The notes below the pieces were generated by a model that saw only the letters and a list, made by a program, of their open reading frames with translations, did not search any database and was not told the DNA's origin. The translations under genes were made by a program, and so were the position numbers. 54,636 nucleotides of DNA from Chiloscyllium plagiosum. Taxonomy: Eukaryota. The stretch covers positions 20,149,663 through 20,204,298 of the forward strand of contig NC_057749.1 of the NCBI RefSeq assembly GCF_004010195.1, given 5' to 3'. Positions 7,166 through 27,459 of this stretch are shown here, piece after piece. The stretch's first letter is position 1, and each line of letters begins with the position of its first letter.

Positions 7166-7592
7166 GGGATGGGTGTTAGAAAAGCCAATGTGGATTTTGG
7201 ATTGCTTTAAGGAAGAGATGCTAAATGCAAATTAATTATCCCACAATGACGATGCCCACTTGGATGGTCAATACAGTCTACACTAAATGTGCATCAATAT
7301 CTGAAACATTGTCAGTGATTCAGACCAATAACAAGACGTGTTCTAGCATATCGGCCTTTAAGTTATGTTGGGCAACGTTCAAAGTTGGACTTTCTTTTTG
7401 GGTTGAATGGGACTCAGACAGGCCTGCTGCAGAGCTTCAGAATGGAGAGGGGGAAACTGGATAACATGATGGGAGCTAAAATGCTTAACTTCTATTGTTA
7501 ATGAAGAACATGCCAATAAACAAGTTTCAAGCAAGGTTGGCTTTGTGGAAATAGATATTCTCAGTCAGCCTGTGTAGAAACATTATTATACA

Positions 7593-25095: not shown

Positions 25096-26940
25096 AAATG
25101 TTGGATCTGATTTTGTTAGGAGGAAATGTAGGAGGAAAACAAATGGTTTTAATGAGTGAACACAACACTGGCTGGCTGCTGCTTTCAGTGTTTAGTTACA
25201 TAGCCCAGTGAAATGAGAGAATATTTAAACTTTATTGTTGAGAATAACTCCTCCATTACATCACTGAGTCCTGGGCTTGTACAAGAGATTGTGGAAGTGA
25301 CAGTGCAGTTATAACTCCCCAGATGCAGTGATGGACATGAAAATGTTAGACTCATTCAAGAATCGACTTTGGGAGCTGTAAAACCATTCTGTAAGAATGA
25401 GAAGGATAATAGAATGGTCTGCCCAAAGTTGACTTATGAATATCAGTGTTTTTGAAGGATGAGCCACTTGTGCAGAGCTTCCTTTTGTCTGCCAATTGTG
25501 ATGTTCACAATAAACTCTATTAATTTCCTGTAATAGCATTAAATTATGTTAACACCAGGATGCCATCGATGCCTTCCATTGCTCCATTTTAAAACAAAAT
25601 GACAAAAGTTGCAATCAGTTAATATTCTGAGAATTGATCAGTATTGTGTCTAACCTTTAATCCTGGCTGTCAAAACTAGACGTTATGGGCTTCCCCTTTT
25701 AAAAAAAAATGTTGGATGACAATTTTAAATCTTGCTACATGGTGATTTGAGTGTGTGGCTTTTTCTGGATGGAGCCAATGCTGAAATGAAACTAGAGACC
25801 TTTTTTGTTTGTTGGGTCTCTATGATTCTTTCTTCATGCGTTTTTTTCCTTCTTGTCCATTTACCTGTTGATACCAGCGGATAGCTCTGATGTATGCCTT
25901 TCTCCCAAGGTCACAATTCATAATAATTGGCAGGTGGCCTGCAGGATTTCTGCAGTGTTCCTTCTGTCCCCTCTCCAGCTGTGATGTTTGTAAAGCACGC
26001 CAATTTGGAGAAGTGACATAACGACAACAAGCAAGTCTGGGATCTGCATGTTTATCCATCTGTTCCAGGCCGCAGCTCTCTTTTCCTTGAGCAACTGATA
26101 GGCCCTCAAGTTTGTCGCTTGGAAAGGCATGGAGTTTTATTTTGCCATGACTTTGTAATTTATAAATATAATCTAGGAAGCTGTGCCAGAGAGTGGGATT
26201 AAGTCACGTTTCTTTGAACCAGTTTGCAGTGTTCTCTGAGAGAATCCAAGCTTAAATTCCACCCCCCCCCTCCAAAAAAATGCCTAACCCCTGCAGACTG
26301 AGAGGCCACATGGGAGTCCTGAATTAATTGTCAAGTCGCTGGCTGCATTTTGACTTGTGGCCAGGGATGTTACTGATGCTGTCATTCATTCGGGTGCTGT
26401 TAAGGCAGTTGAACAGTAATAGACAACAAATTTGTTGGCTCATGGAAGACCTCCTCCAAAGTGCTAAGCTGGTTGGTGTATCCAATATCTGTTGGATGTA
26501 ACGCTCAGCATGATTCTGGACGTGTGATCAGTTTTCTTGGGTATTTCTTTCTCTCTGTATCTCTCTGCAATTCCTGCCTGAAAGTTAATCTTTTACCTAA
26601 ATATTTGGTTGTCTCTCCTAAATCACCCTCTGGCGCTTGTTTTTCCCAGCACCTCTGAAGAGCCTGAGACATCCTTTGCATGTTTAAAAAACAGACAAGG
26701 ACATGATAGTTGCGGAGGTAGTAATTTGTGTTTCAGACGTTAGGTTTCATGGTCTCACCTGTTGAGCTTGTAGGTTGTGCTTTAAATCCTTGCAAAGACC
26801 TGAGCACATTCTAAGGCTGAGATACTATCTATGACATCACCACAGGAACTGACATTATAAGAGGAAATGACATCACCAACCCAAGGAAACCTAAACACAA
26901 AAATAGAAAGTGGGTCACTAATACCACTGCTTCACCAGAG

Positions 26941-27174
26941 TTAAAAATCTCACAACACCGGGTTATAGTCCAACAGGTTTAATTGGAGGCACACTAGCTT
27001 TCGGAGCGTCGCTCCTTCATCAGGTGATAGTGGCCACTATCACCTGATGAAGGAGCGACGCTCCGAAAGCTAGTGTGCTTCCAATTAAACCTGTTGGACT
27101 ATAACCTGGTGTTGTGTGATTTTTAACTTTGGATACCCCATTCCAACACTGGCATCTCCAAATCATCTCTACTA
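26941..27174 (+). mobile_element. Fold-back Penelope-derived mini-element (family B) with intact hammerhead cores on both strands
   Basis: 188-bp spacerless palindrome 26940-27127 (centre 27033/27034, about 3 mismatches) plus tail; 12-bp TSD gcttcaccagag at 26929-26940 and 27175-27186. Confidence 0.9.
27041..27075 (+). ncRNA. Minimal type-I hammerhead ribozyme motif (mirror copy on the - strand at 26992-27026)
   Basis: CAC-CTGATGA-AGGAGC-GAC-GCTCC-GAAA-GC-TA-GTG: catalytic boxes, 5-bp stem II, palindromic AGCT in place of stem III, CAC/GTG stem I. Confidence 0.75.
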
Positions 27175-27459
27175 GCTTCACCAGAGGCTCACTGATGTTG
27201 TTACCTAGTATAGTGACAAAACATCTGAAAACGAACCTTTCAGCTCAGCGAACAAACTTACATTCAGAACCTCAATCTGAGCTACACAGCTTCTCAAAAC
27301 TTGCTAATGCTGTCTATGGATAAGCATTATCCCTTGCGTGGATGTAGTAAATCCATCAACTATTCGGAGAAGAGCAGGAGAGCTCTTCCTGGTGTCCTGG
27401 CCAAGATCCACCCTTTAACCAATGTCACTGAATGATTTATCTGATTGTTTAGCTGAACA

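Follow-up and report, generated by a model that had tools for sequence, protein, structure and literature searches.

A hammerhead-bearing palindrome in the genome of Chiloscyllium plagiosum is very probably a 5'-truncated insertion of a Penelope-like element with a head-to-head inverted partner

We examined a 54,636-nucleotide stretch of the Chiloscyllium plagiosum genome (contig NC_057749.1, positions 20,149,663 to 20,204,298; hereafter the window), in which a short palindrome carries a hammerhead ribozyme motif on each strand. The segment at 26941-27174 is very probably an endonuclease-encoding Penelope-like element (PLE) that was heavily 5'-truncated on insertion and dead on arrival, lying head to head with an inverted partner. 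This reading is based on the observed relationship of the segment to a repeat family, on a parent of that family with reverse transcriptase (RT) and GIY-YIG endonuclease sequences, on an architecture that recurs elsewhere in the genome, and on a single insertion flanked by a target-site duplication (TSD). The locus is a known kind of object with no demonstrated function and most likely does nothing. Annotating it as a truncated PLE with an inverted partner guards against its being mistaken for a microRNA precursor or a ribozyme switch.

The PLE fragment landed within an older, very abundant interspersed repeat, for which a first look at the genome gave at least 1330 candidates (40 scored, at 87-95% identity) and whose flanking parts show very high contig depth in all runs. 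From left to right, the inserted unit and its borders consist of a 12-bp direct repeat, one arm, the abutting reverse complement of that arm, a 48-nt tail and the second copy of the direct repeat (Table 1). A repeat search returned inverted arms at 26935-27033 and 27034-27132 (99 nt, 96% complementary, 0 nt spacer); the element-derived part of these arms comprises 26941-27033 and 27034-27126, each of 93 nt and mismatched at 3/93 positions. The tail is present on one side only and is single-copy within the unit, which contains no open reading frame (ORF). At both outer ends the 12-mer GCTTCACCAGAG is found in exact form. In paralogues of the host repeat (loci L079-L083) the two flanks are contiguous in 5/5 cases and overlap by exactly one copy of this 12-mer. 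The uninterrupted state of all five paralogues, with one 12-mer copy in each, proves that 26941-27174 is one insertion event with a 12-bp TSD. A first-pass annotation of the window had described a spacerless palindrome with about three mismatches and a single-copy tail on one side, inserted as one unit with a 12-bp TSD, and each of these features is borne out by the measurements.

The sense strand of each arm reads CAC-CUGAUGA-A-GGAGC-GAC-GCUCC-GAAA-GC-U-A-GUG. The window has exactly two occurrences of the 27-nt core string, one at 27044-27070 on the plus strand and one at 26997-27023 on the minus strand, with 0 occurrences expected from 100 shuffles. We also designed a minimal-hammerhead descriptor, consisting of a 3-bp helix I, a CUGANGA box, 0-1 unpaired nucleotides, a helix II closed by G-C, a GAAA box, a complementary 15.2/16.2 pair, U and then H (not G). 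This descriptor matched the window twice, both times in the arms, and matched 0 of 300 simulated windows. Both motifs contain the core boxes C3-A9 and G12-A14 as well as A15.1, U16.1 and H17 and, as read from the sequence, a bulged A, a G10.1-C11.1 pair and a palindromic 15.2-16.2 GC pair; helix III is replaced by a palindromic AGCU and helix I is short, at 3 bp. The predicted cleavage site follows from standard hammerhead numbering. Exact string and descriptor each match once per arm, and the earlier description of two intact cores, one per strand, of the minimal PLE type with a palindromic tetranucleotide for helix III can be retained. Against the hammerhead label stands an Rfam scan that returned 0 hammerhead families at E ≤10, as expected for a motif without helix III, which the Rfam models require. 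Two other candidate assignments were rejected. Matches to microRNA-hairpin families of Rfam all fell short of the gathering scores (49.2 bits for the best, where 81 is required) and are generic long-hairpin matches, while a type-III hammerhead that uses the palindrome centre as helix I lacks the nucleotides required at 16.1 and 17.

An alignment of 86 distinct family copies with the two arms of the window showed core and helix changes to be either scattered singletons or transitions of CpG type. Changes in helix II are one-sided and mostly of CpG type, and subfamilies differ only in the middle of loop 2. No compensatory helix changes were found among these copies and arms, nor was there evidence against the fold. 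Judged from this alignment, the copies appear to decay neutrally, core positions included, as expected of dead insertions. Both hammerheads are most likely passengers, representing the normal minimal hammerhead of the pseudo-long terminal repeat (pLTR) of a PLE, copied twice. Ends of raw RNA reads do not pile up at 27072/27073, which is weak evidence as the library is 3'-biased. Frequent among family copies is a 2-nt deletion of GT directly 3' of the predicted cleavage site (window 27073-27074), which shortens a GUGUGC run and alters the letters after the 3' strand of helix I.

The parent family was sought by searching the 3.56-Gb genome with one arm plus tail, which gave 833 first-look candidates, 40 of which were scored at 93-100% identity. 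Truncation has left the direct arm of the window with a 5' end some 10 nt upstream of the CUGAUGA box; in other copies homology runs on upstream past this palindrome centre for tens to thousands of bases, with extensions of between 560 bp and over 2 kb among them. In locus L062 a frame at 5470-5997 matches Pfam RVT_1 (E 2.9e-8) and lies about 1.45 kb upstream of an arm plus tail at 7444-7584. The order is collinear, with the RVT_1 frame followed by a frame ending in a stop, by about 670 bp and then by the arm plus tail. RVT_1 was also matched in three longer frames. A second broken copy, L063, has a stop-free frame of 397 aa that runs from the RT YIDD motif through to the stop codon. Residues 22-396 of this frame align to 422-795 of a 797-aa protein, P0007, at 40% identity (E 1e-86), and P0007 has a Pfam GIY-YIG domain at 695-760, downstream of RVT_1 and inside the aligned region. 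Letters of the GxY...YIG type are visible in the frames of broken copies. Homologues at E ≤0.001 number 135; RT-type domains are present in the majority of them and PF01541 in many.

The fusion of RT and GIY-YIG, with a hammerhead near the 3' boundary, indicates that the parent is an endonuclease-encoding (EN+) PLE with an RT to which a GIY-YIG endonuclease is fused C-terminally. The derivation from a PLE proposed in the first-pass annotation is thereby supported, arm plus tail being the 3' end of this RT and GIY-YIG family. A CxxC-type motif within the linker that joins RT to endonuclease in broken copies suggests a place for the family on the Neptune/Nematis side. Between the ORF stop and the hammerhead (L062:6778-7146, L063:922-1350) lies an imperfect CA-rich, microsatellite-like stretch that is open in several frames.

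Palindromes of this kind are widespread among copies of the family. In element coordinates (ref, taken from L062:5000-7600), the window unit consists of inverted ref 2445-2542 abutting direct ref 2445-2585. An inverted partner lies no more than 60 bp from the 5' end of the tailed copy at 16/29 other sampled loci, and solo 5'-truncated copies without such a partner account for 13/29. The outer ends are consistent, with 16/16 inverted partners ending untailed at ref 2539-2546 and 29/29 direct copies ending tailed at ref 2575-2588. The head-to-head form is also found where the arms measure from several hundred bases up to two thousand. The position of the centre varies by insertion, and flanks as well as a direct repeat of about 7-15 bp are particular to every insertion (by eye). 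The palindrome had been put forward as a special structure; it is instead a standard form of PLE insertion, present thousands of times in this genome.

The first-pass annotation had also called for a genome search for copies with the same centre, and this found the exact window centre, GTGG/CCAC, within 2 mismatches at ten places, the nine outside the window being independent insertions with duplications of their own. The loop-2 letter varies among these ten copies, and both arms of a copy agree in 7/10 (by eye), a pattern that would fit one template copied twice per event. At one of the same-centre loci (L091, contig C3) a mini head-to-head insertion lies inside the CUGAUGA box of another family copy, with the duplication CCTGATGAAG.

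How such a unit may arise is suggested by experiments on another PLE. Frangieh et al. 2024 (PMC11167929) reported that both strands of the target are cleaved and extended by a purified PLE protein, that reverse transcription has two adjacent internal start sites, the tail being the stretch between them, and that the hammerhead is dispensable for insertion. From these results we infer two-strand priming and two start sites for the present family. The GIY-YIG endonuclease would make staggered cuts in the target about 12 bp apart, giving rise to the TSD, and both target strands would then prime DNA synthesis at a pair of internal start sites close to where the element RNA ends 3'. The distal start site would give the tailed direct arm and the proximal one the untailed inverted arm. 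Both complementary DNAs (cDNAs) would stop at one point on the template, some 10 nt 5' of the hammerhead box, and be joined head to head, leaving a spacerless palindrome.

Several points weigh against this account. Two-strand priming would be carried over from the in vitro behaviour of the anole Poseidon element, which belongs to another family. Equal end points of the two arms are not predicted by two independent cDNAs and would require either that the templates had a 5' end in common or that the nascent strand folded back. For the parent, no intact ORF was seen, as the readable copies are broken and the longest frames reach N stretches. A Pfam scan of the broken endonuclease frames gave no GIY-YIG even at E ≤10, which is why this domain was assigned by homologue alignment. 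At the locus itself the palindrome is bridged by 0 contigs of X5, another sample, and by 0 of X13, which has a second species label; X13 contigs match both unique flanks at about 98% identity, yet break within repeats. Finally, many of the TSDs start with CTC or CATCTC, matching the letters at the tail end (by eye), and this suggests target-template microhomology at the distal start site, unlike the anole element.

Known PLE insertions offer close parallels. The portion of Craig et al. 2021 (PMC8557442) available to us describes PLE insertions with an adjacent inverted, 5'-truncated copy, a tail of 30-40 bp at one end and hammerhead ribozymes in the pLTRs. EN+ PLEs (Penelope/Poseidon, Neptune, Nematis) share with the window unit a hammerhead close to the 3' boundary, an inverted copy without a tail placed directly against a tailed copy, a tail of about 31-48 nt and a TSD of variable length. 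The window copy differs from them in being extremely short (93 + 141 nt), in having arms that end at the same nucleotide and in lacking a spacer. The available sections of Cervera & de la Pena 2014 (PMC4209133) set out the features of minimal hammerheads and describe dual minimal hammerheads close together on opposite strands; those pairs are 100-700 bp apart, whereas the CUGAUGA boxes of the window are separated by 20 nt. Compared with the minimal hammerheads of Schistosoma, in which helices I and II have 4-5 and 7-8 bp, the helices of the window motifs are shorter (3 and 5 bp).

In LINE-1 twin priming the second target strand also primes cDNA synthesis, so that part of the insertion is inverted within one TSD. 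The window unit shares the inverted part inside a single TSD. The inverted part of LINE-1 insertions, in contrast, is an upstream segment of the RNA, whereas here both parts are the same 3'-terminal segment, which would be present twice and form a true palindrome because initiation is site-specific. Animal non-LTR (long terminal repeat) retrozymes, as presented in the accessible part of the Li et al. 2026 preprint, resemble the window unit in being short, ORF-less, hammerhead-bearing and related to PLE pLTRs. According to the same part of that text they are head-to-tail tandems that yield dimeric ribozymes and circular RNA, which the window unit cannot do; the head-to-tail tandem hammerhead repeats that define retrozymes are absent from this unit, which is solitary and head to head.

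We examined the transcription and gene context of the locus; the first-pass annotation had named the CSNK1G pre-mRNA as an example of a read-through transcript. A raw RNA run (X21) has 0 reads on the unique flanks of the locus. A scan of the window with CK1 motifs gave no kinase exon, and there was no match in a Pfam scan that covered 150 plus-strand frames, all within 253-37191, out of the 216 that reach 48 aa or more. The only CK1-gamma signal on the contig (C40) is an exon match to CK1gamma_C (PF12605; 43.5 bits, plus strand) about 132 kb past the end of the window. The CSNK1G intron could thus not be confirmed as the setting of the insertion. Differences of the A-to-G type over the repeat were considered as signs of editing and rejected, since they are present in DNA-type runs too and represent differences between paralogues.

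At the level of the family, reads of X21 are mostly sense-strand and 601 of them continue upstream into long-copy sequence. Runs of A begin in these reads directly after the positions corresponding to 27101 (328 reads) and 27104 (409 reads), 12-15 nt downstream of an ATTAAA that is the likely polyadenylation signal of the element family; these counts are family-level and not locus-specific. Poly(A) at these positions implies that polyadenylated element transcripts end before both reverse-transcription start sites.

The most elaborate alternative to a dead PLE insertion is a functional device, in which a double-sided ribozyme is self-silenced by a hairpin in a host pre-mRNA and supplies ADAR or Dicer with substrate. 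Transcripts that contain long inverted repeats form double-stranded RNA (dsRNA), and the computed hairpin fold is overwhelming: the 258-nt stretch has a folding energy of -184.3 kcal/mol (200 shuffles averaged -60.3; z -27.9), while arm plus tail alone reaches a minimum of only -32.7 kcal/mol, with helix II formed. In a read-through RNA the arms would pair as a hairpin of about 93 bp that precludes the ribozyme fold. As each transcript carries one sense motif together with its complement, the hairpin would win and a dimeric ribozyme fold could not form in cis. The claim that a ribozyme is presented by either strand consequently holds in the trivial sense that every transcript has one sense motif, and falls short in that the full complement lies alongside and no dimer is available in cis. 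The activity of PLE minimal hammerheads is in any case low even as dimers, according to the available sections of Cervera & de la Pena 2014, and protein assistance of their cleavage has been reported (Frangieh et al. 2024). Insertion has given rise to the same structure, as a by-product, at thousands of unrelated sites, the copies decay at core positions like neutral DNA and the two arms already differ at 3/93 positions. With no reads on the unique flanks and an unconfirmed intronic context in addition, we regard a functional device as very unlikely, and the idea of an edited or diced hairpin is generic to any inverted repeat.

Other alternatives concern the origin of the unit. That ten independent insertions share the GTGG/CCAC centre within 2 mismatches would be explained if the palindrome were itself a short non-autonomous master, akin to a short interspersed element or a retrozyme, that is copied whole, and Li et al. 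2026, in the part of the preprint accessible to us, argue that animal retrozymes are non-autonomous PLE derivatives. The centres, however, form a continuum of positions and other junctions recur too; the loop-2 letter varies among same-centre copies while agreeing between the arms of most of them, no 5' flank is carried along, and units of the window type are dispersed whereas retrozymes form tandem arrays. There is accordingly little probability that such a master exists. A foldback or miniature inverted-repeat DNA transposon with terminal inverted repeats, unrelated to retrotransposition, would also leave an inverted repeat flanked by a TSD. Such an origin is extremely improbable given arms that are collinear with the 3' end of an RT and GIY-YIG element, a centre that varies between copies, in contrast to fixed and unequal outer ends of which only one bears a tail, a TSD length that varies from about 7 to 15 bp, and the abundance of solo copies. 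A false fold-back join in the assembly has in its favour the absence of independent bridging contigs and the statement, in the portion of Craig et al. 2021 available to us, that inverted PLE structures trouble assemblies. We give it almost no credence, as the exact 12-bp TSD at the outer ends is matched by single-copy empty sites in the paralogues, the arms differ at three positions where a fold-back artefact would give identical arms, and the same structure with its own TSDs is present at thousands of loci.

The genome-wide distribution of head-to-head junctions raises a further question about the PLE insertion process. Junctions were counted with exact 11-mer anchors and a 4-34-nt gap, for which all controls gave 0, in four zones ordered 3' to 5' along the element RNA, the direction in which the reverse transcriptase travels (Table 1). 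The peak falls just 5' of the hammerhead, directly after the enzyme has copied the hammerhead. In 72 long copies the anchors were intact in 63/72 just 5' of the hammerhead, in 55/72 within it and in 49/72 for the zone 30 nt further 5'; correction for this left the order of those three zones unchanged, the anchor of the fourth zone, downstream of the cleavage site, lying outside the correction. Among the first 50 junctions listed for the peak zone, about 20 are symmetric within 0-2 nt (by eye). Some junctions within the hammerhead (e.g. on contig C1) have the self-complementary helix II as their exact centre, and the two arms then share one helix II sequence. Run-off of the cDNA at a ribozyme-cleaved 5' end was considered as a source of the downstream junctions and rejected, as the symmetric join expected of it was seen in 0/50 listed downstream-zone junctions (by eye). 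One asymmetric junction in that zone recurs about 9 times (by eye).

These counts raise the possibility, which we hold tentatively and consider on balance unlikely, that the 5' edge of the hammerhead is a built-in stop or turn-around point for the reverse transcriptase of the element. One possible cause is that the template RNA has its 5' end there. Alternatively, the self-complementary helix II may fold in the nascent cDNA and dislodge it, possibly followed by fold-back or a strand switch, in a manner that can be likened to an intrinsic terminator. A non-exhaustive full-text search of the literature, supplements excluded, found no account of junctions concentrated in a hot zone at the edge of the hammerhead. 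If the proposal were true, a ribozyme motif would shape the outcome of insertion at the DNA level, and thousands of hairpin-forming mini-insertions of about 230 bp would have been seeded, potential sources of dsRNA wherever they are transcribed. The thousands of independent junctions of one young PLE family constitute a natural data set on how cDNAs end and are joined, a step of PLE integration that is little understood, and the same set could show whether the hammerhead region influences PLE integration.

Table 1. Features of the palindromic insertion and its surroundings, in window coordinates, with the genome-wide head-to-head junction zones of the family (ref, L062:5000-7600)
Feature	Position	Strand	Basis or count
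Older interspersed repeat hosting the PLE fragment	26848..27312 (about 26848-26940 and 27175-27312)	.	Depth, copies and paralogues
Left TSD copy, GCTTCACCAGAG	26929..26940	.	Exact direct repeat; present once in 5/5 uninterrupted host-repeat paralogues
Inverted, untailed PLE 3' end, ref 2445-2542	26941..27033	-	BLAST, 91.8% identity
Minimal hammerhead motif	26992..27026	-	Helix I CAC/GUG, CUGAUGA, bulged A, helix II GGAGC/GCUCC, GAAA, palindromic GC, U, A17; features compared with the available sections of Cervera & de la Pena 2014 (PMC4209133)
Direct PLE 3' end, ref 2445-2537	27034..27126	+	92.9% identity to L062, tail included
Minimal hammerhead motif, predicted cleavage after A27072	27041..27075	+	Core string and descriptor
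ATTAAA, likely polyadenylation signal of the element family	27084..27089	+	A-runs in X21 reads
One-sided 48-nt tail, past the end of the inverted arm	27127..27174	+	Family end points; tail in PLE literature
Right TSD copy	27175..27186	.	Exact direct repeat and paralogous empty sites
Junction zone downstream of the cleavage site			495 places
Junction zone within the hammerhead			952 places
Junction zone just 5' of the hammerhead (class of the window)	centre 27033/27034		At least 2018 places, with the two hammerhead boxes head to head and 4-34 nt apart
Junction zone about 30 nt further 5'			186 places

Two minor observations concern other copies of the family. One head-to-tail pair was seen (L058/L059; 2507-bp period, 99.5-100% identity), and this tandem could be a recent segmental duplication rather than a pLTR pair. 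A protein labelled as a bamboo shark phosphatase regulatory subunit (P0030) is 91% identical to the PLE frame across 24% of the query, and its gene model probably includes a PLE fragment.

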